Source: Okeania sp. (GTDB lineage: Bacteria > Cyanobacteriota > Cyanobacteriia > Cyanobacteriales > Microcoleaceae). From it: a DNA stretch of 12,950 nt. The position numbers and the translations under genes were made by a program. Positions 1-12,628 of the stretch are shown here, in pieces; the stretch's first letter is position 1, and each line of letters begins with the position of its first letter. The notes beneath the pieces are model-generated. The model saw nothing but the letters and a program-made list of their open reading frames with translations, was not told where the DNA came from and did no database searches. The stretch lies in NCBI RefSeq assembly GCF_035285525.1, contig NZ_JAYKGW010000204.1, forward strand, positions 1 through 12,950. The letters run 5' to 3'.

Positions 1-570
1 TTGTTACTTCATTTCAATCTACACAAAGTTGTTAAAAGTTGGGTTTTGTTACTTCATTTCAATCTACACAAAGTTGTTAAAAGTTGGGTTTTGTTACTTC
101 ATTTCAATCTACACAAAGTTGTTAAAAGTTGGGTTTTGTTACTTCATTTCAATCTACACAAAGTTTTTATAAAGTTGGGTTTTGTTACTTCATTTCAATC
201 TACACAAAGTTGTTAAAAGTTGGTTTTTTTACCTCATTTCAATCTACACAAAGTTTTTATAAAGTTGGGTTTCGTTACTTCATTTCAATCTACACAAAGT
301 TTTTATAAAGTTGGGTTTTGTTACTTCATTTCAATCTACACAAAGTTGTCAAAAGTTGGGTTTTGTTATCTCAATTAAACTTACACAGAGTTGTCAAAAG
401 TTGGGTTTTGTTATCTCAATTAAACTTACACAGAGTTGTTAAAAGTTGGGTTTTGTTATCTCAATTAAACTTACACAGAGTTGTCAAAAGTTGGGTTTTG
501 TTATCTCAATTAAACTTACACAGAGTTGTCAAAAGTTGGGTTTTGTTATCTCAATTAAACTTACACAGAG
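1..570. repeat. Tandem array of 45/46-bp units (12 full copies plus 1 truncated copy), open at the window edge; candidate sopC/parS-like centromere
   Basis: Unit boundaries read from the sequence: 1, 46, 91, 136, 182, ~227, 272, 318, 363, 408, 453, 498, and a partial unit at 543-570. Units 1-8 are type A (TTGTTACTTCATTTCAATCTACACAAAGTTGTTAAAAGTTGGGTT), and some carry a 1-nt-longer TTTTTATAAAG variant. Units 9-13 are type B (TTGTTATCTCAATTAAACTTACACAGAGTTGTCAAAAGTTGGGTT). The array ends exactly at the stop codon (571-573) of the ParB-like gene. The repeat itself is certain. The centromere role is inferred from position only. Confidence 0.95.
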
Positions 571-1305
571 TCAGGATATATCTGGCCAGGAGTCAATAAT
601 TTTAATCATTCTTTTCTCTGCTAAACCGTCAATACGTTTAATAACATCACTAAAAGATTCAAAGGGTTCAAACTGTTTTTTATTTCGCTCTTTTTCAATA
701 TTATTTATTACTCTCTGACTTACTCCTGCTTTGCTTAACCTAGGACTTAGTTGAGCAAAAGACATAGTATTAAGAGCATCTAATAAGGGAGGTATTGGTT
801 CAGGAATTTTTCTTTCTAATTCTTTAATTCTTGCTTCTAATACTTGGTTTTTTGATGAAAGCTCTGCTTTAACTTCATTCATTATATTGTCTAATCTTGA
901 TTCCATATTAAGCAGACGAAAATCAAAATTTGATAAGCGAGATTCTCCGTTACTTGGTGCGGTAGTTTCTCTACCACTATCCGGTGAAGGTAGTGGAGTT
1001 TTTGGTTGAAGAGCTTCAGCTTGTTTTAAAACTAAATCTTCAATTTTTGATGATATTACTAAAGAATTAACCATTTCTGCTTGACGTGGATTTTTTTCTC
1101 TAGCTCTCACCGCAGCATAGTATTCTAATGCACCATCAATTAATTCATATTCTTCTATTCCAACCTGTTTTAATAGAAGTGGTTTTACTAATCCATCGCA
1201 CTCTAAAATCATATCGGCTAAATGTTCAATTTCATGTTCCGAAAAATTAGAACGAGACTGATTTGAAGTGATACTTTTTACATCGACTAAATAGAAGGAA
1301 ATCAT
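571..1305 (-). CDS. Atypical ParB-like protein: degenerate ParB/Srx N-terminal domain, coiled-coil linker and C-terminal ComEA-like tandem helix-hairpin-helix
   Basis: 244-aa ORF whose ATG overlaps the upstream gene's stop by 1 nt (TAATG at 1303-1307). The N-terminus VDVKSITSNQSRSNFSEHEIEHLADMILECDGLVKPLLLKQVGIEEYELIDGALEYYAAVRA follows the ParB N-domain pattern, but DGALEYY replaces the box II GERRxR arginines. The middle (RLSNFDFRLLNMESRLDNIMNEVKAELSSKNQVLEARIKELERK) looks coiled-coil. The C-terminus LNTMSFAQLSPRLSKAGVSQRVINNIEKERNKKQFEPFESFSDVIKRIDGLAEKRMIKII matches the ComEA (HhH)2 pattern. Confidence 0.8.
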   Translation of the reverse strand: MISFYLVDVKSITSNQSRSNFSEHEIEHLADMILECDGLVKPLLLKQVGIEEYELIDGALEYYAAVRAREKNPRQAEMVNSLVISSKIEDLVLKQAEALQPKTPLPSPDSGRETTAPSNGESRLSNFDFRLLNMESRLDNIMNEVKAELSSKNQVLEARIKELERKIPEPIPPLLDALNTMSFAQLSPRLSKAGVSQRVINNIEKERNKKQFEPFESFSDVIKRIDGLAEKRMIKIIDSWPDIS

Positions 1306-2780
1306 TAAATATTCTCCATTTTTTGTAGAACTTCTTCAGCTAATAATTCAAATTCATCAGCAGAGTCGTTAGCTGTCGCATCTTTATCTGAATACTTAAA
1401 TATAGATAAGGGATTAGGAATATCTAACTCCCCTACTTTGATCGTTTGATTTAAACATTTTGATAAAGCTGTTCTTTCTGAAATAATACTATTCATCAAA
1501 GGCAGTTCGTAACGTTCTGAAATCACTTTTGTTTGTCGAGAAAATGTGTGTTGCCTAAATTTAGAATTAGGGGAAATTTTAGAGGGAAGAACACCCATAA
1601 TTTTTAGAGAAGGCATTCTCATACCTTCCCGATATTCATTAACTTGTCTGACAAAATTTTTGACAGTAGGTAAGCCTTGATTTGCAAATGGTTTTAAATC
1701 AGAAGGAATTATCAAATAATCAGCAGTAATTAGAGGGATTTCGGCATAAATATCTCTAGATGGAGGAGTGTCAATAATTACTATATCATAATCATTTTCT
1801 ACTTTCTTTAGTTTAGTAATTAATCTGGATCTACTAACAGCAATTTTGGTTAGCTTGTCTTGATGCTCAATTAATTGAATGTGAGATGGAACTATATCTA
1901 ATTCTGGGTCGTTAAAAAATTCTGATTTCCTAGCTATGTCGCTAATAAAACCAAAGTCACCTGATTCTATTAGATGGTAAACATAACTGCTTCTAATATT
2001 ATCATTTTCTTCAAACTGAAATTTTACTAAACCAGTAGCAAATGTGGCGTTTGCCTGACTATCAAAATCTATAATGAGAACTTTTTTTCCTTTTTGTACT
2101 AGGGCAGCAGCTAAATTAACTACTGTTGTCGTTTTGCCTACTCCGCCTTTATTGTGATAAACAGCAATTACTTTCATAGAATTTCTCCTATTTTGATTAA
2201 TTGGATTATACTTGGTTTCAATGTTTATTAAATCTGCCTGATTTTCGAGAATATTACTAACAATTTCTTTTGGCTCAGATTGAGTAGCGATCGCCTCATT
2301 GACATTTACTTCTTTTTGTGGAATTTCCGATTTATTATAAACCACATTTTGACGTAAATATTCTCGACCTACTAATGCTTTAATTTCTTCTATTTTCTCA
2401 TCAACTTCAATTCCCAAACAATTAAACTCTAACTTAATATTATTTCCTTCTCTTTGATAAATCCTAATTTCTTTAGCATTAGTTAACAAGCCATATTTTA
2501 CATTCATGCTGGTTAAATAACGTCTAAATTTTCGTTGATGACGGTCTAAATTTTGTTTGGGACTTTTTGCCTCCATTACTAATGCTAAAGGAGAGTCTTC
2601 ATCCAAACGAAAAGGTAGTTCCTGGGCAGCAAATGATAAAAAGTCTAAGCGGATACTACCAAAGGTTACTTCTTGATGCCAATGTTCGATATCGTATCCT
2701 AATTTTGGTAGTAGATAACTAACAATTAGTTTGCTTTCTACTTCGCTTTCGTTACGACATAAATCTGGATTAAAATTCAA
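1305..2780 (-). CDS. Fusion protein: N-terminal HsdR_N-type PD-(D/E)xK domain plus C-terminal ParA/Soj/MinD-family partition ATPase
   Basis: 491-aa ORF with a TTG start at 2780. Residues ~10-110 (ESEVESKLIVSYLLPKLGY...IRLDF...LVMEAKSP...YLTSMNVKYGLLTNAKEIRIY) show the D...ExK core and trailing Y..tNG..y signature of type I restriction R-subunit N-terminal domains. Residues 202-491 carry the deviant Walker A with signature lysine (MKVIAVYHNKGGVGKTTT), then LIIDFDSQANAT and Walker B DIVIIDTPPS. An internal ATG at 2175-2177 (M202) is preceded by AGGAGA. Confidence 0.9.
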   Translation of the reverse strand: MNFNPDLCRNESEVESKLIVSYLLPKLGYDIEHWHQEVTFGSIRLDFLSFAAQELPFRLDEDSPLALVMEAKSPKQNLDRHQRKFRRYLTSMNVKYGLLTNAKEIRIYQREGNNIKLEFNCLGIEVDEKIEEIKALVGREYLRQNVVYNKSEIPQKEVNVNEAIATQSEPKEIVSNILENQADLINIETKYNPINQNRRNSMKVIAVYHNKGGVGKTTTVVNLAAALVQKGKKVLIIDFDSQANATFATGLVKFQFEENDNIRSSYVYHLIESGDFGFISDIARKSEFFNDPELDIVPSHIQLIEHQDKLTKIAVSRSRLITKLKKVENDYDIVIIDTPPSRDIYAEIPLITADYLIIPSDLKPFANQGLPTVKNFVRQVNEYREGMRMPSLKIMGVLPSKISPNSKFRQHTFSRQTKVISERYELPLMNSIISERTALSKCLNQTIKVGELDIPNPLSIFKYSDKDATANDSADEFELLAEEVLQKMENI

Positions 2781-2985: not shown

Positions 2986-3078
2986 AAAAAAGCAATCAGC
3001 ATTCAGCAGTCAGCAAGACTGTTTATTTCAAACGTAAATCTTGAGAAACTGATAGGTGATAGCTGACTGCTAATTGCT
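2986..3078 (-). terminator. Possible desA terminator: long imperfect hairpin followed by a T-run on the minus strand
   Basis: GCAGTCAGC (3006-3014) pairs with GCTGACTGC (3062-3070), and AGCAAT (2991-2996) pairs with ATTGCT (3073-3078). On the minus strand the structure is followed by TTTTT (complement of 2986-2990), and it begins about 20 nt past the desA stop. The loop is large (47 nt), so this is tentative. Confidence 0.3.
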
Positions 3079-3098: not shown

Positions 3099-4151
3099 CT
3101 AAGAAACTTTCTGAGCATTGTACTCTTTAAAAGTCATATAAAACTTTTCTCGATCATACAAATGACACTTATCTGTTATCTCTTTCATTAAAGACCAAGA
3201 AAACTTAGTTTGATAAAGTTTATCTCCCCATTTATCCTTTAAAAATTGATATGCTTTTCTTAAATTATATGAAGGGATTCCTACAGAAACATGATGGGGA
3301 ATATGTACATTAATATCATGGCAAAGAAACTCTACCCAACGAGGATAATCACAATGTACTGTACCAAATAATTGAGCCTCTACTTCATTCCAGTTTTCTG
3401 CTGAAGTAAAAGGAATTTCTGGTACTGTGTGGTGAACAATAGTAAACGTACTCATCCAGAAGTGGTAAACTAACCAGGGCATTAACCAAAACTTGACCAA
3501 ACCCCACACACCAACTGTAGCTATTAACAAAGGAAAAGTGATCGCGCTAAACCCAACAATTACCAATGCAGAAAATTTAACATCTTTCCGATCCTGACCC
3601 TCAAATTTTCTCCAGTTAAAATGTATACCTGCCCAGTGAACAATAGAAGCTAACCACCAAAGTCTACCACGCATAAATCTATACACTAACTGCATAGGAG
3701 TACCAGCAACCTCATAATCTTCTGGATACCAAGGTTGCCAAGCATTATCTTCCCCCATCTTATTTGTATGTTTATGGTGATGATTATGGCCGATTCGCCA
3801 ACCATGAAAAGGATAAATTAAAGGCAAAAACATTAAGTGACCAACTAAATCATTGACCCAGCGACGGTTCGCAAAGGAACGATGACCGCAGTCATGGCCA
3901 ATTACAAAAAATCCTGTTAGTGCAGTGCCAGTGAAAATCCAGAATAGGGGCAATAAAAACCAAGGTGTAATTGTTAGTCCCCAATAACCTAAAACAACCA
4001 TAAAAACATTGGTTGTCACCATTGTCCATGTTTTCCATTTATCTTTAATGAAAACTTCGCGAGGTAGAGTTTTCACAATATCTTTTAGCTGTAGTTGGTC
4101 TTTCTGACCAGAATAATTTCCATGAACAGATTCTGCAATTGATACAGTCAT
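3099..4151 (-). CDS. desA: Delta-12 acyl-lipid (oleate) desaturase
   Basis: 350 aa with three histidine boxes: HDCGH, HNHHH and HIPHH. Long stretches match my recollection of Synechocystis DesA ([77 protein letters not shown]). The sequence is unlike omega-3 DesB, which has HDCGHGSF and differs elsewhere. Confidence 0.95.
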
Positions 4152-4464: not shown

Positions 4465-4719
4465 TTATTTTTCAACAATTTGTGAAACTAAGTCTCTTTC
4501 TTTGATAGTTTGTAATTCTAATAAGAGAGTTTCTATTTCTGCTTCGAGATGAAGTAACTTAACTTGTTGATCGGTTTGATACAAAGACTTCATTTGTTTT
4601 AAGGTTCGGGTTTGATTGGTTAATTTTCCTGGACTGTTTACTTTTGTAGGAGTATCTGAACAAAGAGAAACTTTGGACAAAGTAGATGTGCTGTCAGAAA
4701 TCATTAAGTTACTAGCCAT
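4465..4719 (-). CDS. Hypothetical small protein with a C-terminal coiled-coil (84 aa)
   Basis: ATG-initiated ORF with a heptad-like tail (VKLLHLEAEIETLLLELQTIKERDL). I recognise no family and see only a weak SD. Coding status is uncertain. Confidence 0.35.
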   Translation of the reverse strand: MASNLMISDSTSTLSKVSLCSDTPTKVNSPGKLTNQTRTLKQMKSLYQTDQQVKLLHLEAEIETLLLELQTIKERDLVSQIVEK

Positions 4720-5509: not shown

Positions 5510-6601
5510 ATGACCTTAACATTGTCCCCTTATCAGTCAAAATTACAAGGTTGGCCGGGTTTAATAGAAGCATATAGGCCCTATCTACCCGTGACACAGG
5601 AAACTCCTGTGGTGACGCTGCAAGAAGGTAATACTCCTCTGATTCCTGTACCAACCATTGCCCATCAGGTAGGCAGAAATGTAGAAGTATTTGTGAAATA
5701 TGATGGCCTTAACCCCACGGGTAGTTTTAAAGATAGGGGTATGACTTTAGCCATATCTAAGGCCAAAGAAGCAGGAGCTAAAGCAGTAATCTGTGCTAGT
5801 ACAGGTAATACTTCTGCTTCCGCTGCGGCTTACGGGAGACGAGGTGGGATGCGAGCTTTTGTTTTAATTCCTGATGGTTATGTGGCTTTAGGAAAGTTGG
5901 CTCAAGCTTTGTTGTATGGAGCTGAAGTTTTGGCTATTAAAGGAAATTTTGACCAAGCTCTAGAAATAGTCCGGGAAGTGGCTAATAAGTATCCTGTGAC
6001 TTTGGTCAACTCACTTAACCCTTATCGTCTGGAAGGTCAAAAAACGGGGGCTTTTGAGGTGGTGGATGCTTTGGGAGATGCCCCAGATTGGTTATGTATT
6101 CCTGTGGGCAATGCTGGGAATATCACAGCATATTGGATGGGGTTTTGTCAATACCATAAAACTGGAAAATGCGATCGCTTACCAAAAATGATGGGCTTTC
6201 AGGCAGCAGGGTCAGCACCTATTGTCGAAGGCCATCCTATAGCTAATCCAGAAACAGTGGCCAGTGCTATTAGAATTGGTAATCCTGCTAGTTGGGAAAA
6301 GGCTATAGCTGCTCAAGAAGCGAGTCAGGGGAGTGTTAGTGCTGTGACTGATGAGGAAATATTGGAAGCTTATCGTTTATTGGCTTCTAATGAAGGAATT
6401 TTTTGTGAACCTGCTAGTGCTGCTTCTGTGGCTGGTTTATTGAAAGTTAAAGACCAAGTTCCTACAGGAGCAAAGATAGTTTGTGTACTTACTGGTCATG
6501 GTTTGAAGGACCCTGATGTAGCGATTAAACATAGCAATAACAAGTTTAAGCCGGGTATAGAACCAAGTATAGAGGCAGTTGCGAAAGTTATGGGGTTTTA
6601 A
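5510..6601 (+). CDS. thrC: Threonine synthase (PLP-dependent)
   Basis: 363 aa. It carries the PLP-lysine motif [11 protein letters not shown], plus [27 protein letters not shown] and [12 protein letters not shown]. Similarity to bacterial ThrC, for example B. subtilis from memory, runs end to end. Confidence 0.96.
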
Positions 6602-6693
6602 AGGAAGAAGGAGGAAGAAGGAGGGAGGAGGAGGAGGAAGAAGGAGGGAGGAGGAGGAAGAAGGAGGAAGAAGGAGGAAGAAGGAGGAAGGAG
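6600..6693 (+). repeat. 94-nt uninterrupted homopurine (GGA/GAA-type) tract
   Basis: Every base from 6600 to 6693 is A or G on the plus strand. The tract begins inside the thrC TAA stop codon (6599-6601). It contains a duplicated GGAAGAAGGAGGGAGGAGGAGGA block, tandem ~10-nt AGGAAGAAGG-like units and many AGGAGG cores. Confidence 0.95.
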
Positions 6694-6801: not shown

Positions 6802-7482
6802 TTACTCATTTTTACTACTAGGTAAACGAGGTAATGGTTTTCCGCCCGGTGGTAGCTGGAGAGTATTGGTATAGGAGGTTTCCTGTAATTGGATTTTATT
6901 TTGAATTTGATTATTGATTTCTGTTTTTAGCTGACTCTCGGAAATATTCTCCAATGTTTGTGGTTTAGTTGCTTTTGCTTTGGCCAGAAGATTCACTGCA
7001 TCTGCCAAAGCATTTGTTAAACTTTTACGAGTATCTGCATGATTAGTTTGTTCTTGTTGAAGAGCTGTAGTTAATTTTTGGACTTTTGCCAGAGCGCGAC
7101 CATGTTCCTGGCTCACTTCAATAATTTTGGCCTTAAACTCATCTATAGTTTGTAAATGTTTGATTTCCTGTTCAATATTTGTTGTAGTTTCATTTTTATC
7201 CCTATCAACGAAGGATAAACCTTGTAATTTCTGAACTTTGGTTTTCAAGTTATCAATAGTTTCTTGGTTTTGTTGTGTTTCATTTCTGCGTTGTTGAGCT
7301 TCAGTATTATATAGTTGGCGCCATTTAGAAGCATTATTTTGAGCTAAATCTAATTCTGTTTGTAGTTCGACTATTTTTTGTTGAAGGGCTTTGATTTCAT
7401 TTAACCATGGAGTTATATCCTGTGTCATATCATAATTATAGGTGATAGGGTGTTCATTTAATTGGGTTATTTTTCCCTGCAA
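6802..7482 (-). CDS. Q/N-rich coiled-coil protein, function unknown
   Basis: 226-aa ORF from a TTG at 7482. An in-frame ATG at 7428 (MTQDITPWLNE) is an alternative start. Composition is heptad-like and rich in Q, E, K and L (IKALQQKIVELQTELDLAQNN, KVQKLTTALQQEQ). I recognise no enzymatic motif. Confidence 0.6.
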   Translation of the reverse strand: MQGKITQLNEHPITYNYDMTQDITPWLNEIKALQQKIVELQTELDLAQNNASKWRQLYNTEAQQRRNETQQNQETIDNLKTKVQKLQGLSFVDRDKNETTTNIEQEIKHLQTIDEFKAKIIEVSQEHGRALAKVQKLTTALQQEQTNHADTRKSLTNALADAVNLLAKAKATKPQTLENISESQLKTEINNQIQNKIQLQETSYTNTLQLPPGGKPLPRLPSSKNE

Positions 7483-7937: not shown

Positions 7938-9110
7938 ATGAGCTTTTTCCATTTTCTACGTCACTTTAATTCTGTAACATTGCAGGAATTTTCCAATCGG
8001 AAAAATAGGCAGCGATTTTTAGATATATTAATTCCAATTTCCCAAAATACTTATAGATTATTATTAACGATCCTCAAGTCAATAATTAAATATATATTAA
8101 GACGAATAATTCGCTTTTTTCAGTTCATTTATTATCTTAATTTATCAACTATTAAAGAAGTATTTAATTGTGCAGCAAAACAGAGATTATCCGGTTTATC
8201 TGCGGAGATGGCATATCATGCAATGCTTGCTTTATTTCCGGCTTTATTAACAATAATTGCTGCCATTGGAATATTTGACTCTTTAAGTTTAACCCTGTTT
8301 CAAATGGGAGGTTTACTAATAGATATACTTCCCAATCAAATACGGTTTTTAATTAGCTGGGCTGTGGATGAAATTCAGAGTTCTCCTAACAAAGAAATAT
8401 TTTCTTTTAGTTTTATTGTATCAATTTGGATATTTTCTAGTGTGGTTAGTTCTGCAATGGCAGCCCTTGATGCAATTCATCAAGTTCCGATTGAGGAAAA
8501 ACGACCTTTTTGGAAAGCAAAATTAGTTTCTTTAGGGTTAACTATTGGCAGTCTAATACTATTAATTATTGCTTCTACTTTAGTGTTAGTTAGTGACTTA
8601 ATTGTAGACATAATTGCTCGTCAAAGTTGTCTATTAGAGACTCTGCCTAACTGCCCTCCAGATCAAGTTGCTATTTGTTTATTTCAAGAACCTATAGATA
8701 ATTGTATTTTAAAGTCACAATTATTAGAAACTTGGAGTCAATTAAGATGGCCGATTACTTTAGGAATAGTATCAACAGCTTTTGCTTTTGTTTATCGTTT
8801 TGGTCCGAGTTATAGAAAGAAAGGTACGCCGATTATGCCTGGTGCAATTATATCAGCATTAATGTGGGCGGGAGCCTCTAATTTATTTCGTTTATATGTT
8901 TTCCATTTTGGCTTTAGTTTTGAGAACTATAACCGAATTTATGGAACTATTGGTACTTTTATTATTTTGTTATTGTGGTTATATATTAGTTCATTTGTAG
9001 TGTTAATTGGGGCACAATTAAATGTAACAGTAGGGGAGGAAATGGTTAAAAAAAAGGAAGTTATGCCGTTTCACAGAATTAAAAAGTCAAAATTCAAAAG
9101 TCAAAAATAA
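7938..9110 (+). CDS. YihY/virulence factor BrkB family membrane protein
   Basis: 390 aa. Family-typical segments are LSGLSAEMAYHAMLALFPALL, RPFWKAKLVSLGLT, YRFGPS, PGAIISALMWAGASNLFRLYV and YGTIGTFIILLLWLYISSFVVLIGAQLN, with multiple TM helices. The N-terminal ~55 aa may overextend the true start. Confidence 0.85.
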   Translation: MSFFHFLRHFNSVTLQEFSNRKNRQRFLDILIPISQNTYRLLLTILKSIIKYILRRIIRFFQFIYYLNLSTIKEVFNCAAKQRLSGLSAEMAYHAMLALFPALLTIIAAIGIFDSLSLTLFQMGGLLIDILPNQIRFLISWAVDEIQSSPNKEIFSFSFIVSIWIFSSVVSSAMAALDAIHQVPIEEKRPFWKAKLVSLGLTIGSLILLIIASTLVLVSDLIVDIIARQSCLLETLPNCPPDQVAICLFQEPIDNCILKSQLLETWSQLRWPITLGIVSTAFAFVYRFGPSYRKKGTPIMPGAIISALMWAGASNLFRLYVFHFGFSFENYNRIYGTIGTFIILLLWLYISSFVVLIGAQLNVTVGEEMVKKKEVMPFHRIKKSKFKSQK

Positions 9111-9182
9111 GATTTTATAGCTCGAAATAAAGGAAGAAAAAAGAAGGAATAAGGAAGGAAAATAATGGCATAAAAATTGGAG

Positions 9183-9418: not shown

Positions 9419-10369
9419 CTATTGTAGCTTAAGACCTATATAACCAACGATTATTTTTCCAGGTCTTAACTCTTCAGAAAGATAAAGTCGCCAAGCACCA
9501 GGAGTCATTCGTAGATGCCAACTAAAAAGACGTTCTTTATTATCAGGACATTTAATAGTTAGTTGTTGTCTAAACTGTTTAATTCTGGAGTCACTTTCTG
9601 GGGTAGTTTTGCTTGGTAATAAATTTGGATTAAAAGTTCCTGTTTGCCAAGTTTGAGAGTATTTTTCTAGTTCCAATAATCGTTTTTTTACCTGTTGCAA
9701 AATTGGGTTGCCAGTGTTGAGGTTTTTTAGCTGTTGCTCTACTTGTTCACAGAAGATTAAATTAGCGAAAAATTCTTGTCTCTTTTCCCATAGTTTTTCT
9801 CCATCAATTTGCTTATCAAATAGTTGATTTTCTATATGGTTTTTAATCCATTCTGTATGTTGTTTAACATGACTGATTCGACTAGCATGAACAATTTTTT
9901 CCGAGTATTCAGTTAACTCTCCATTTTTATCTAATTCTGTTATCTGAAGTTCCAGAAAATCTGTATCCCATTGTGTTTCGGATAACAAACTAACTGTAAA
10001 AGAATCACTAATTAAAGCCAAACGAATACCCTCTGCTAACTTTCCTTGATGCCGAACTTCAGACAAATCAAATTTATCTTTAATTTGTGGGAGAGCATCC
10101 TCACAAAAAGGAACTTTTAAAGTTAGACTGCGGAAAAATCTACGCTCCTCTAAATCTACTGTTTTGTCGTTACGCCAACTTGCTATAGGATAATTACAAA
10201 CAAGTTCTATATTGTTAATATTGCTGTGAGTCCGAAGTATAGGTTTGACACCTAAACTTTTTGCTTTACGTAAAGTTTGAATTAACTCTGACATTAATTT
10301 TTGCGCTGTAGAAATATCAGCAACATGAGTCTGTAGAGAAAGTTCATTAAGCACCATTTCTAAATCCAT
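9419..10369 (-). CDS. Unknown 316-aa protein, third gene of the DUF262/ATPase operon; C-terminus resembles RelE/ParE/YhaV-fold toxins
   Basis: The ATG at 10369 lies 2 nt after the ATPase stop (TAA-AT-ATG). I recognise no family for residues 1-260. The C-terminal SWHLRMTPGAWRLYLSEELRPGKIIVGYIGLKLQ has the G-x-(W/Y)-R-h-h-(F/Y) ... hydrophobic strand ... G pattern that ends RelE/ParE-superfamily toxins. Confidence 0.8.
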   Translation of the reverse strand: MDLEMVLNELSLQTHVADISTAQKLMSELIQTLRKAKSLGVKPILRTHSNINNIELVCNYPIASWRNDKTVDLEERRFFRSLTLKVPFCEDALPQIKDKFDLSEVRHQGKLAEGIRLALISDSFTVSLLSETQWDTDFLELQITELDKNGELTEYSEKIVHASRISHVKQHTEWIKNHIENQLFDKQIDGEKLWEKRQEFFANLIFCEQVEQQLKNLNTGNPILQQVKKRLLELEKYSQTWQTGTFNPNLLPSKTTPESDSRIKQFRQQLTIKCPDNKERLFSWHLRMTPGAWRLYLSEELRPGKIIVGYIGLKLQ

Positions 10370-10371
10370 AT

Positions 10372-11481
10372 TTATTCTTCCCTGGGTTCTAAAAGTGCTT
10401 CTAAACTATTATCCCATTCATCAAAAAAACCTTCTGGCCATTCATCTATTCGCCCGTTTCGATCTATCTGGGGGGATATTATTTTAGTTATAAATTCTGT
10501 TCCTTGTTTTCGGCGGTCAAAATAATGTAATTGAACTTTTTCAGGATTAAATTTTCCTTTATAAACTGTTAATCTAATTCCATTTAAAACATGGTCGCTA
10601 TGAGTTTCAACTACAATTTGTACCCCACAACTAGCAGCAAGAGCTAATAATTCTCCCATTTTTGCTTGACCTTTTGGATGAAGATGTGCTTCAGGATTTT
10701 CTATTATAATTAAACTGTCTGGAGGGGATGAAAGAATAGCTACAATAATTGGTAAAGTATAGCTAATTCCAAATCCAACATTAGTAGAACGATAAGGATT
10801 ACTATCTCCATAATAATATTGAAGACTAATTAAATCTATATCTTGTTTAGGGTTTATTTGTAGCCGCGTACCAGGACTAATTTCTCCCATCCAAGCTTCA
10901 ACTTGTTCTCTTAAAATTAGGGAGTCTGCTTGTGGATGCCTTAAGCTAATATTTGGTATATTTTGGTTTTCATTTACAAATAAAAAATGAGCTGTATATT
11001 CTCCTTTAGTGCCTAATTTTTCTAGTTCTTGAACTTGGAAATCTGACATTTCTAAAAATAAACGCGGACCTAAACGTTCTGCTTGCAGATAGTGGAAGTT
11101 TTTCTTAAAAAGACTAGATTTATAAATATCTGAAGTCACAGGTGGTGAGGCAAGATTTAGAACATCTTTTTCTCGGTTGTAAGAAAAATTCCAAATTCCC
11201 CGAGTCCCATTTTCCCAGACAATTTCAAAACTAATAAAATCATCTTTTGCTCCTTCAAATAAAGCATCTTGAGCAGTGCCTATAGAAACTAATTCACCAT
11301 TGAGTGCTAAACCTTGATTTTTTAATAGTCCTTGTTGATAAGATTGACGCATTAAAAGTAATGCTTGTAAGACAGAAGATTTGCCTGTACTATTTAGACC
11401 AGAAAGTAAGGTTAGCGGTCTAAATGATAGAAGCTGGTTGGCAAAAGGTTTAAAATTTTTTAGATGTACTGAACTAATCAT
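10372..11481 (-). CDS. DUF3696-type ABC-like (AAA_15/AAA_21 class) ATPase
   Basis: 369 aa. Motifs are Walker A LLSGLNSTGKSSVLQAL, a signature-like region NVGFGISYTLPIIVAIL, Walker B with its following motif LIIIENPEAHLHP, and an H-loop VVETHSDHVLN. The C-terminal GRIDEWPEGFFDEWD tail is typical of the DUF3696 family as I recall it. Its ATG lies inside the upstream gene's last codons, giving an 8-nt overlap (ATGATTAG). Confidence 0.88.
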   Translation of the reverse strand: MISSVHLKNFKPFANQLLSFRPLTLLSGLNSTGKSSVLQALLLMRQSYQQGLLKNQGLALNGELVSIGTAQDALFEGAKDDFISFEIVWENGTRGIWNFSYNREKDVLNLASPPVTSDIYKSSLFKKNFHYLQAERLGPRLFLEMSDFQVQELEKLGTKGEYTAHFLFVNENQNIPNISLRHPQADSLILREQVEAWMGEISPGTRLQINPKQDIDLISLQYYYGDSNPYRSTNVGFGISYTLPIIVAILSSPPDSLIIIENPEAHLHPKGQAKMGELLALAASCGVQIVVETHSDHVLNGIRLTVYKGKFNPEKVQLHYFDRRKQGTEFITKIISPQIDRNGRIDEWPEGFFDEWDNSLEALLEPREE

Positions 11482-12628
11482 TTATAACTTCTTTGATAAT
11501 TTTTTCAATAGTTTCAAAACGATATTCTATCTTATCTTGAGCTTGAGAGATAGACTGGGAAAATTTTCTGTCTTTATCTACATATTCAGTAAATTTATCT
11601 ACTAAGTTTCGCTTCTGTACTTTAAGTTTTTGAGTCTGTCGAGAATTAAGCTGACTAATGTGAAATGACCATGTTTCAAATAAGGCTTTATTAACTGGAA
11701 ATTTTCTTTGCTTCTTAGGTTTCCTAAAAGCTTCGTCACCAAATATTTCTTGACAAATAATCATAGCATTTTTGAACTTATCTTTAAGTTGTTTAATTTC
11801 CGAATCAGATAAATCATTAATTTTTTTCATAGCATTATCTAAAAATTCTTCTCTGCCATCTCTAGCGTAATCTTGATAAGAATCAGATGTAAGCATCACT
11901 GCTAAAGCACCTAGTACAAATTCCCGATCATCCATACGTTTGATTCGTGATTCACCGAGCTGAATAACATTAGTAAATTCTGGAGATTTAGCAAGTTCAG
12001 CTAATAATTTTAGGACTTTACCAGGATTAAGAGCATGACGTATTTCTTGAGGAGTTAAACGTTCTCCTCCTGTGTTAATACGTTTAAAAATATTATACTT
12101 AACTTTAGCTGGCGTACCTGATGAAATTAGATATATAGTAACTTGAGTTTCTTCAATACGACGCTGGTATTTACGGTCTAAATCTTTATAGATTGTGCCA
12201 TTAAGTTCATTGCCCAAATATTCTAAACCAGTTAACCGTAAATTATTACCAATGAACTGTTTTAAAGCTGAAAGTCTTTGCAAACCATCTACTACTAACC
12301 AGTTTTCTTCATTAGTTCCATCAATATAAAAAGCTGGTAAAGGAATCCTAATAATAATAGATTCAATCAATCGACTTTTAACCTCATCATTCCAGATATC
12401 AGAATGACGCTGAAAATCTGGAGCTAAATCAAGAGCTTTTTCATTTATTCTTCTCACTAACTGTTCAATTGTAGGTTCTCTAGTAATAATATTAATTTTC
12501 TCTGGATCGTAGATTAAATTATCTTTTTCATATACTTCCTCTTCATCATTTTCTTCCTCTTGATATTTGCTATAATTTTCTTTACTACTCATAGATTTTA
12601 CTCCCATTATTTGATTTTGATTATACAT
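11474..12628 (-). CDS. DUF262 (ParB/Srx-fold, GmrSD-N-like) domain protein without a recognisable nuclease domain
   Basis: 384 aa. The DUF262 signature reads LDLAPDFQRHSDIWNDEVKSRLIESIIIRIPLPAFYI...WLVVDGLQRLSALKQF (FQR...W...LI.SI...P.P...DGxQRL). The C-terminal ~220 aa look helical, and I could not find a DUF1524/HNH-type His-Me motif. In-frame alternative starts are M8 and M13; M13 at 12592 has GGGAG 8 nt upstream. Confidence 0.88.
   Translation of the reverse strand: MYNQNQIMGVKSMSSKENYSKYQEEENDEEEVYEKDNLIYDPEKINIITREPTIEQLVRRINEKALDLAPDFQRHSDIWNDEVKSRLIESIIIRIPLPAFYIDGTNEENWLVVDGLQRLSALKQFIGNNLRLTGLEYLGNELNGTIYKDLDRKYQRRIEETQVTIYLISSGTPAKVKYNIFKRINTGGERLTPQEIRHALNPGKVLKLLAELAKSPEFTNVIQLGESRIKRMDDREFVLGALAVMLTSDSYQDYARDGREEFLDNAMKKINDLSDSEIKQLKDKFKNAMIICQEIFGDEAFRKPKKQRKFPVNKALFETWSFHISQLNSRQTQKLKVQKRNLVDKFTEYVDKDRKFSQSISQAQDKIEYRFETIEKIIKEVIND

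Follow-up and report, generated by a model that had tools for sequence, protein, structure and literature searches.

The window analyzed here is a whole contig of 12,950 bp from a metagenome-assembled genome of Okeania sp., and the system in question lies at its left end. Three elements follow one another there: a gene with a TTG start for a 491-residue fusion protein (1305-2780, minus strand), in which a PD-(D/E)xK nuclease-fold domain precedes a ParA-type ATPase; a gene for a 244-residue ParB-like partner protein (571-1305, minus strand); and a tandem array of 45-bp repeats (1-570) that is truncated by the left contig end. The original prediction had placed a fusion ATPase, a ParB-like partner and a 45-bp array at these positions, and open reading frame (ORF) analysis, Pfam and Tandem Repeats Finder (TRF), the last combined with manual parsing of the units, located all three of them there. 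The plus-strand ORFs across 1-718 were found to be translated repeats and were rejected as genes.

The fusion protein was 100% identical to WP_324238277.1, recorded as 'AAA family ATPase [Okeania sp.]', and the TTG start of its gene was also kept in Trichodesmium. The protein was divided into the following three parts, all encoded on the minus strand: an N-terminal PD-(D/E)xK domain of the HsdR_N type with E11, E15, D46, E70 and K72 (residues 1-143; 2352-2780), a variable linker of low confidence (residues 144-201; 2178-2351), and a ParA/MinD-type ATPase domain (residues 202-491; 1308-2177). The AlphaFold2 model had a mean predicted local distance difference test (pLDDT) score of 62.6, being weak at residues 32-65 and below 50 at residues 146-199, and the linker varied from approximately 15 to approximately 70 residues across homologues. 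In the ATPase domain, AAA_31 (residues 202-383, E 3.5e-53, 180.6 bits) and CbiA (E 4.9e-21, 75.4 bits) both exceeded the Pfam cut-off. A deviant Walker A motif with the signature lysine was present (NKGGVGKTT, residues 210-218), and the Walker A' and B aspartates D238, D240 and D337 were invariant in the homologues. The best solved relatives in the PDB were 4pfs/5ihp ('Cobyrinic Acid a,c-diamide synthase') and Helicobacter pylori Soj (6iub) at E ~8e-22, with McdA (6noo, E 6.5e-11) and P1 ParA (3ez2, E 5e-5) as weaker relatives; on sequence comparison, the nearest relatives of this domain are Soj-type proteins. None of the NCBIfam partition models reached its cut-off on the ATPase (the SopA model scored 41 bits, with 725 required), and PADLOC and NCBIfam assigned neither the fusion protein nor the partner to a specific family.

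HSDR_N_2 matched residues 17-115 of the window protein with an E-value of 4.5e-5 and 23.9 bits, just below the 25-bit cut-off. The same family was matched by 20 of 20 homologues at E <0.01 (best E 7.7e-7) and HSDR_N by 13 of the 20, and more distant representatives exceeded the HSDR_N_2 cut-off with 34.6 and 40.3 bits. Together with the AAA_31 match, these results supported the fusion of an HsdR_N-type PD-(D/E)xK domain to ParA that had been proposed for this gene. In particular, D46 (in RLDF) and E70-A71-K72 (in MEAK or IEAK) did not vary among 20 close homologues or among 14 diverse aligned N-domains; two more distant N-domains, read and not aligned, departed from the triad, as P0347 had IIEVR without RLDF and P0340 had LVDAK. 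The catalytic D-ExK triad of the window protein is apparently intact, and cleavage by this domain is putative. The comparison of the N-domain profile with the PDB was uninformative: the top match was a designed repeat protein, which we rejected as spurious, and 3h1t was matched at E 0.82. The N-domain was rare: of 1.84 billion representatives searched exhaustively with HMMER, 88 matched at E<=1e-3 and 53 of these also at E<=1e-10. A ParA domain was present in all eight full-length matches that were scanned (P0310, P0318, P0325, P0330, P0339, P0343, P0347 and P0364), and Pfam also registered HSDR_N_2 in five of these eight. Two variants of this layout were observed: P0335 (650 residues) joined an RloB-like (Toprim/OLD-type) domain to PD-(D/E)xK and ParA domains, and P0337 (373 residues) had an RloB-like domain before the PD-(D/E)xK domain and no ParA ATPase.

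The partner protein was 100% identical to WP_324238276.1, and its AlphaFold2 model had a mean pLDDT of 79.9. We found an N-terminal domain with a ParB/sulfiredoxin (Srx) fold that lacked the GERR box (residues 1-99; 1009-1305), a disordered Pro/Ser-rich linker with one long helix predicted to form a coiled coil (residues 100-170; 796-1008), and a five-helix C-terminal domain of the helix-hairpin-helix (HhH) type with an invariant W240 (residues 171-244; 574-795), all on the minus strand. ParB_N matched residues 13-69 with 27.1 bits against a Pfam cut-off of 26.3. The top Foldseek matches of the N-terminal domain were Noc (7ol9), ParB (7bnk, 6sdk and 7bm8) and PadC (6ryk), with E-values of 3e-5 to 1e-4, and the Foldseek probability was 1.00 for Noc, ParB, PadC and sulfiredoxin. 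The position of the GERRxR box reads DGALEYY in the window partner and DGHFEYY in the family consensus, and a G58-x-x-E61-Y-Y motif stood in place of GERR across 24 partner homologues. Because the GERR box is absent, no cytidine triphosphate (CTP) clamp would be expected in the partner. Additionally, no helix-turn-helix (HTH) was found by Pfam or in the AlphaFold2 model, so that the description of the partner as devoid of both the CTP-binding arginines and the HTH held. The pLDDT was below 50 at residues 103-130, the long helix spanned residues 120-166, and E135 and R137 were invariant among the homologues. The C-terminal helices (residues 174-180, 183-192, 197-207, 218-224 and 230-239) were modeled with a pLDDT of approximately 89, and the profile of this domain matched 27ae and AF1531 (2i5h) in the PDB at E 3e-4. 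At the C-terminus, 11 of the 16 members matched DUF655, 10 matched HHH_6 and 6 matched HHH_3, members other than the window partner being listed by E-value only; the HhH-family scores of the window partner itself lay just below the Pfam cut-offs (DUF655, 22.1 versus 22.2 bits). These recurrent matches and the five-helix model agreed with the HhH C-terminus that had been predicted.

The gene pair was present in Okeania, two Trichodesmium-type loci, Nostoc, Trichormus, Laspinema and Phormidesmis. The partner of Okeania SIO3H1 (loci L054 and L055) was 86% identical to that of the window, and those of three Logan assemblies (L056-58) and of an ENA/NCBI metagenome (L059/L060) were 80% and 78% identical, respectively. 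The ParA protein showed 77% identity in an ENA marine metagenome (L001), 65% in Trichodesmium (L004), where the partner was 31% identical, and 62% on the 7.5-Mb chromosome of Nostoc sp. C057 (L002/L003). Partner identities of 46% and 45% were found in Laspinema (L181) and Trichormus (L183), and the ATPase of Phormidesmis (L182) was truncated. Between Oscillatoriales and Nostocales, ParA identity was 60-67% with an almost invariant N-domain, and the gene order BrkB-thrC-desA-parA-partner was common to Okeania and Trichodesmium. The partner ATG and the ATPase stop codon share one base in the window (TAATG); an overlap of 1 or 4 bases was also found in L001, L002, L004, L054, L181 and L183, and the two genes of L182 were 2 bases apart. 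Translational coupling of the gene pair is conserved.

Searches with the N-domain, the full-length protein and the partner added further members, the genera found being Okeania, Trichodesmium, Dapis, Nostoc, Anabaena, Tolypothrix, Planktothrix, Stigonema, Chamaesiphon, Prochlorothrix, Pseudanabaena and Microcoleus, together with Chroococcidiopsidaceae. A survey of the fusion architecture had been suggested at the outset; the N-domain type proved rare, and all named N-domain matches belonged to Cyanobacteriota except one from Sericytochromatia. With tblastn, neither the partner nor the N-domain had a match among 72,556 PLSDB plasmids, no match of the partner was found among 50,697 INPHARED phages, and no PLSDB plasmid match covered at least 80% of the fusion protein. 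The conservation, the synteny and the absence of the partner and N-domain from plasmids and of the partner from phages point to a chromosomal module that is inherited vertically. The housekeeping, non-plasmid setting noted in the original prediction was thus supported by the synteny and by the lack of PLSDB matches of the partner and N-domain, and the integrated-element remnant that it had offered as one explanation is unlikely, given the Okeania-Trichodesmium synteny, the 7.5-Mb Nostoc chromosome and the lack of a plasmid or phage match. A literature search found no paper on an architecture of PD-(D/E)xK::ParA with ParB/Srx-HhH, and we regard the gene pair as an uncharacterised variant of the ParA/ParB theme that is conserved across cyanobacteria. 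We also observed that ATPase residues ~255-330 had diverged in the branch of Trichodesmium, Dapis and Okeania SIO3I5; the co-divergence of this segment and the partner (31% identity in the Trichodesmium locus, where it was read) hints at an interface.

TRF placed the array at 1-548 with a period of 45, 12.1 copies, 94% matches and a score of 796. Unit parsing resolved 13 units of 44-46 bp over 1-570, a lower bound because the contig stops within the last unit. The array adjoins the partner stop codon (571-573). Next to the partner gene stood five type B units of 45 bp each (346-570; gene sense CTCTGTGTAAGTTTAATTGAGATAACAAAACCCAACTTTTGACAA), and beyond them eight type A units of 44-46 bp in three sub-variants (1-345; gene sense CTTTGTGTAGATTGAAATGAAGTAACAAAACCCAACTTTTAACAA), three of which carried a TTTATAAAAA tail. 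The array was not produced by chance, because its core motif had 11 matches against 0.08 expected. No copies of the unit were found elsewhere in the window or upstream of the operon, and an exact scan of 185,579 species genomes, a collection evidently without the window's own genome, gave single chance matches to the unit junction AAAAGTTGGGTTTTGTTA and no arrays. The array folded worse than shuffled sequence on both strands (z +1.1 to +2.1), and no terminator-like site was found within it. A CRISPR-like reading was rejected, as the units run head to tail without spacers, and the idea that plus-strand C-to-T changes keep G-U pairs was unsupported by the folding.

When the relatives were compared, TRF found no array downstream of the partner in seven other lineages (L001, L002/L003, L004, L054/L055, L181, L182 and L183), and in an eighth (L059/L060) no 45-bp periodicity was seen by eye in approximately 0.8 kb downstream. 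One stem-loop, TCCGTAGGTTGGGTT-N10-AACCCAAyTTCTACC, lay 6-45 bp past the partner stop codon in both Okeania SIO3H1 loci, the three Logan assemblies and the Trichodesmium locus, and the Okeania and Trichodesmium relatives had it in the extended form TCC-GTAGGTTGGGTT-N10-AACCCAAy-TTCTACC. In the ancestral element, GTAG comes first, the stem measures 8-9 bp and the loop 10 nt. A second, inverted copy was found 80-250 bp beyond the first in the Okeania and Trichodesmium relatives. The loop was TCGTTACCTC in L054 (hairpin at 10742-10772) and the reverse complement, GAGGTAACGA, in L004 (hairpin at 12463-12493) and L056, with unchanged flanks; such a flip between relatives is as expected for a palindromic element. 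The single hairpin of L054 folded well (z -2.3 and -2.8). Additionally, L054 carried a 2.1-copy duplication of 16 bp in the same flank of the hairpin, and for this reason the hairpin site appears to be slippage-prone.

The type A unit, read in gene sense, aligned to the L004 hairpin and its 3' flank over 46 columns, 36 of them identical, with an alignment score of 37 that none of 2000 shuffles reached (shuffle maximum, 24). Five of the 10 differences were G-to-A, and four of these five fell in the 5' arm or the adjacent loop. Within the window, GTAG was kept by the type A units only, and the stem had decayed. A scan of metagenome contigs for GTAGGTTGGGTT-N10-AACCCAA found at least 95 copies in at least 80 loci; among the matches listed, there were often two or three hairpins per contig with diverse loops and flanks, and none of the loci encoded a relative of the fusion or partner protein.

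Di Nocera et al. 2013 (PMC3733652) report GTAG-tagged repetitive extragenic palindromic (REP) elements in filamentous and unicellular cyanobacteria, with loops of 9-15 nt in GTAG-15 elements, and describe REPs reiterated in tandem with pieces of flanking DNA. The relatives' hairpin resembles these elements in its GTAG start, its short imperfect palindrome, its many dispersed copies and the inverted pair past the partner gene, whereas the array units of the window have lost the stem. Because the array is absent in relatives, its unit aligns to their single hairpin and that hairpin is dispersed, we read the array as a private, REP-derived amplification; judged from these sequences, it is a lineage-specific, decayed minisatellite and not the centromere of the system. 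One hairpin copy with approximately 15 bp of 3' flank would have been amplified in tandem in the window's lineage, and the 5' stem arm would then have decayed, mostly by G-to-A changes, so that the units no longer fold.

Overall, the window probably holds an uncharacterised, conserved chromosomal gene pair and an unrelated, REP-derived array that happen to lie side by side. For the gene pair, we favor a job in organising or processing multi-copy chromosomal DNA in polyploid cells as the most likely one. The ATPase would dimerise on ATP and bind DNA, as ParA proteins do; the partner would dimerise via its long helix, bind DNA non-specifically via its HhH domain and contact the ATPase through its ParB/Srx domain, probably stimulating it. 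Such a system would work without a CTP clamp and without a parS site, and the nuclease-fold domain would add a second, structure-specific DNA-recognising and possibly DNA-cleaving module. It is a tentative and rather unlikely extension that the PD-(D/E)xK-ParA and ParB/Srx-HhH proteins form a parS- and CTP-independent DNA-organising machine of cyanobacteria, a possible missing counterpart of ParABS, in which the nuclease fold would recognise or cut certain DNA structures and so couple the segregation or spacing of multi-copy chromosomes to DNA processing. Several points weigh against this picture of a DNA-organising pair beside an unrelated array. Centromeres evolve fast and can be lineage-specific, a non-specific HhH protein might nevertheless have a preference for an array of repeats that is bent or AT-rich, and the far end of the array lies beyond the contig stop. 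No ATPase-stimulating N-terminal peptide was evident in the partner. Moreover, the Phormidesmis ATPase (L182, 3141-4726; 59% identical) begins exactly at the ATPase domain and has no PD-(D/E)xK domain, and the gene pair lies there in a defence island with HEC-05, an MmeI-like methylase, DUF2281-PIN, UvrD and a DEAD/MZB helicase. An RloB domain also occurs in one variant fusion (P0335).

The main rival to a chromosome-organising role is a defence or anti-mobile-element system, in which ParA would scan DNA or be loaded on it, with the PD-(D/E)xK domain as effector nuclease and the ParB/Srx-HhH protein as sensor or adaptor. We keep such a conflict role in play because of the Phormidesmis copy without the N-domain in its defence island and because of the RloB variant, and we consider it unlikely. 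The conserved D-ExK triad would suit an effector, as would the domain arrangement of P0335 (RloB, PD-(D/E)xK and ParA), and in Phormidesmis a HEC-05/GmrSD-type gene ends 25 bp upstream of the ATPase gene, the company there also including the methylase, the PIN toxin pair and the helicases. In Okeania, Trichodesmium and Laspinema, genes for an AAA_16/KAP-like NTPase (~665-711 residues) and a winged-helix protein (wHTH; 273-278 residues) lie a few kb from the operon (L054 12722-15847; L004 14242-17342; L181 1-2247 and 4853-8795) and, by synteny, may be found just past the left end of the window. Okeania and Laspinema share 48% identity in the NTPase and 49% in the winged-helix protein, with gene order and orientation differing, and PADLOC and NCBIfam gave no family for either protein. 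In the window itself, a candidate Nsn defence system lies 6.6 kb from the gene pair. However, the very high conservation across orders and the housekeeping synteny look like vertical inheritance, PADLOC gave only weak, short matches of ATPase models near Walker A, and the proposed effector domain has been lost in the Phormidesmis copy. The partner and N-domain are also absent from the plasmid collections, and the partner from the phages.

The remaining alternatives give the array a role or deny its reality. The original prediction likened the locus to the F-plasmid sopA-sopB-sopC cassette, in which case the array would be a centromere bound by the partner or by the nuclease-fold domain and segregated by the ATPase. 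The likeness lies in the order of ATPase, ParB-like protein and ~45-bp tandem array, in an extra N-terminal domain on the ATPase, and in an array that begins at the stop codon and, with at least 13 copies of 45 bp, resembles sopC, which has 12 repeats of 43 bp. For the array, this likeness was not supported: the repeats are absent from every other locus read that has the operon, even where the partner is 86% identical, and the unit, which has lost its inverted repeat, is a degraded version of a hairpin that is dispersed through unrelated contexts. For the proteins, it held only loosely, since the ATPase is Soj-like and not type Ia, its N-domain is PD-(D/E)xK and not an HTH, the partner has neither a sequence-specific HTH nor the CTP-binding box, and the gene pair is chromosomal, with the partner and N-domain not on plasmids and no plasmid match to as much as 80% of the fusion. 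A sopABC-like cassette is accordingly very improbable. Hardly more probable is another cis function, in which the array would act as a REP-type element on the stability or termination of the operon mRNA at its 3' end or would bind nucleoid proteins. In several relatives the ancestral hairpin immediately follows the stop codon, and the REP study discusses these elements at the RNA level (PMC3733652), but the units in the window no longer form a hairpin, shuffled sequence folds at least as well as either strand, the array contains no terminator-like site, and Rfam at gathering thresholds gave no match over the whole window. Least probable of all, and by our estimate highly improbable, is an assembly artefact, in which misassembly at the end of a metagenome contig would have created the array or inflated its copy number. 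The array does run off the contig, and the three independent short-read assemblies of a relative (L056-58) all stop inside the homologous hairpin; its internal order, in which five B units precede eight A units that come in three sub-variants and are 44, 45 or 46 bp long, is not expected from a collapsed or looped assembly.

To place the gene pair among known ParA systems, we compared it with three others. Like Soj/ParA-Spo0J/ParB-parS, it has adjacent and co-oriented genes, an ATPase whose relatives include Soj and a partner N-domain of the ParB/Noc fold. In contrast, the window lacks the GERR box, the HTH and parS (0 matches to canonical parS in the window at <=3 mismatches), and the partner ends in an HhH domain and not in a ParB dimerisation domain. 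PadC, the ParA-bactofilin adaptor of Myxococcus, likewise uses the ParB/Srx fold beside a ParA-type ATPase in a protein that is not a parS-binding ParB, and its structure was among the best matches of the partner N-domain. PadC binds CTP and docks on bactofilin, whereas the window partner has no arginine box and ends in an HhH domain of the DNA-binding type. McdA-McdB, which positions carboxysomes, also pairs a cyanobacterial ParA-family ATPase with a small coiled-coil partner. An invariant tryptophan near the C-terminus is a reported feature of McdB, and the window partner also has one, which ends its last HhH helix. However, McdA lacks a nuclease-fold domain and is a more remote relative than Soj, and the window partner has two folded domains; we therefore set aside an McdAB identity. 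No carboxysome genes were present in any locus read.

We know of no established mechanism for distributing the chromosome copies of cyanobacteria. These bacteria are polyploid and have been described as lacking classical ParA/B/S-based segregation (PMC7766704). The gene pair is a concrete, testable candidate that brings together a ParA motor, a nuclease site that appears intact and a protein of the ParB fold in which an HhH domain stands instead of a clamp and an HTH; it is testable because orthologues occur in Nostoc and Anabaena, genera with genetically tractable strains. If the DNA-organising reading is true, the pair could be the missing ParABS counterpart in a phylum described as lacking the classical system. 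The locus also calls for caution, as the succession of ATPase, ParB and repeats mimics a partition cassette, and yet these repeats arose by private amplification of a widespread hairpin of the REP type. Before a genome scan calls a centromere from such an array, conservation of the array in relatives should be checked. As an amplified REP copy the array is ordinary, and the gene pair is the more interesting part of the locus.

Some further genes of the relatives bear on these families. Upstream of the fusion gene in Trichormus, we found a second, short and divergent ParA-family gene (L183 1311-2195; 294 residues), which may encode an McdA-type or other orphan ParA. In Okeania SIO3H1, a second ParB_N protein of 374 residues is encoded 6 kb from the operon (L054 16606-17730) and consists of ParB_N, a long coiled-coil or low-complexity region and a Rho_N/SAP-like C-terminus. 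Its architecture is analogous to that of the partner, but BLAST found no similarity between the two, and it was rejected as a partner homologue. Past the REP pair and convergent with the partner gene lies a gene for 297-304 residues (L054 11046-11939; L004 12971-13885), which by synteny is likely the next gene past the left end of the window, where a second, inverted REP would come before it; the L054 copy had a weak match to PDDEXK_1 (RecB/Cas4-like nuclease), and the L004 copy had none in Pfam.

The rest of the window contains a fatty acid desaturase gene (FA_desaturase, desA; 3099-4151, minus strand), an 84-residue ORF (4465-4719, minus strand), thrC (5510-6601, plus strand), a 226-residue ORF (6802-7482, minus strand) and a BrkB/YihY-type gene (7938-9110, plus strand). 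The two ORFs had no significant family match; genes of like size without a Pfam match stood at matching positions in L054 (207 and 79 residues) and L004 (212 and 83 residues), the comparison being one of size and position only. At the right end, PADLOC and Pfam identified a complete candidate NsnA-B-C defence system (9419-12628, minus strand) in A-B-C order, with E-values of 1e-130 for NsnA (Pfam GmrSD_N), 2e-131 for NsnB (AAA_15/AAA_21/DUF3696) and 1e-105 for NsnC.

Short repeats were also found between the genes. In the 5' leader of the fusion gene, the heptamer TCAGTTA (gene sense ACTGATA) is repeated 2.7 times at 2788-2806, 8 bp before the TTG, and ACTGATA is repeated 4.7 times at the equivalent place in Trichodesmium (L004 9961-9993). 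TCAGTTA occurs again in another intergenic region of L054 (12155-12180), and (AGCAATC/AGCTATC)n heptamers lie past the desaturase gene of the window (2991-3016). We take these heptamer repeats to resemble the short tandemly repeated repetitive (STRR) heptamers of filamentous cyanobacteria. Finally, purine-rich microsatellites (AGGAAGAAGG repeated 8.6 times and a AAGGAAGAAAA-type repeat) are present at 6602-6693 and 9129-9173, past thrC and the BrkB-type gene, and a similar TTCCTTC repeat was observed upstream of ParA in L054.

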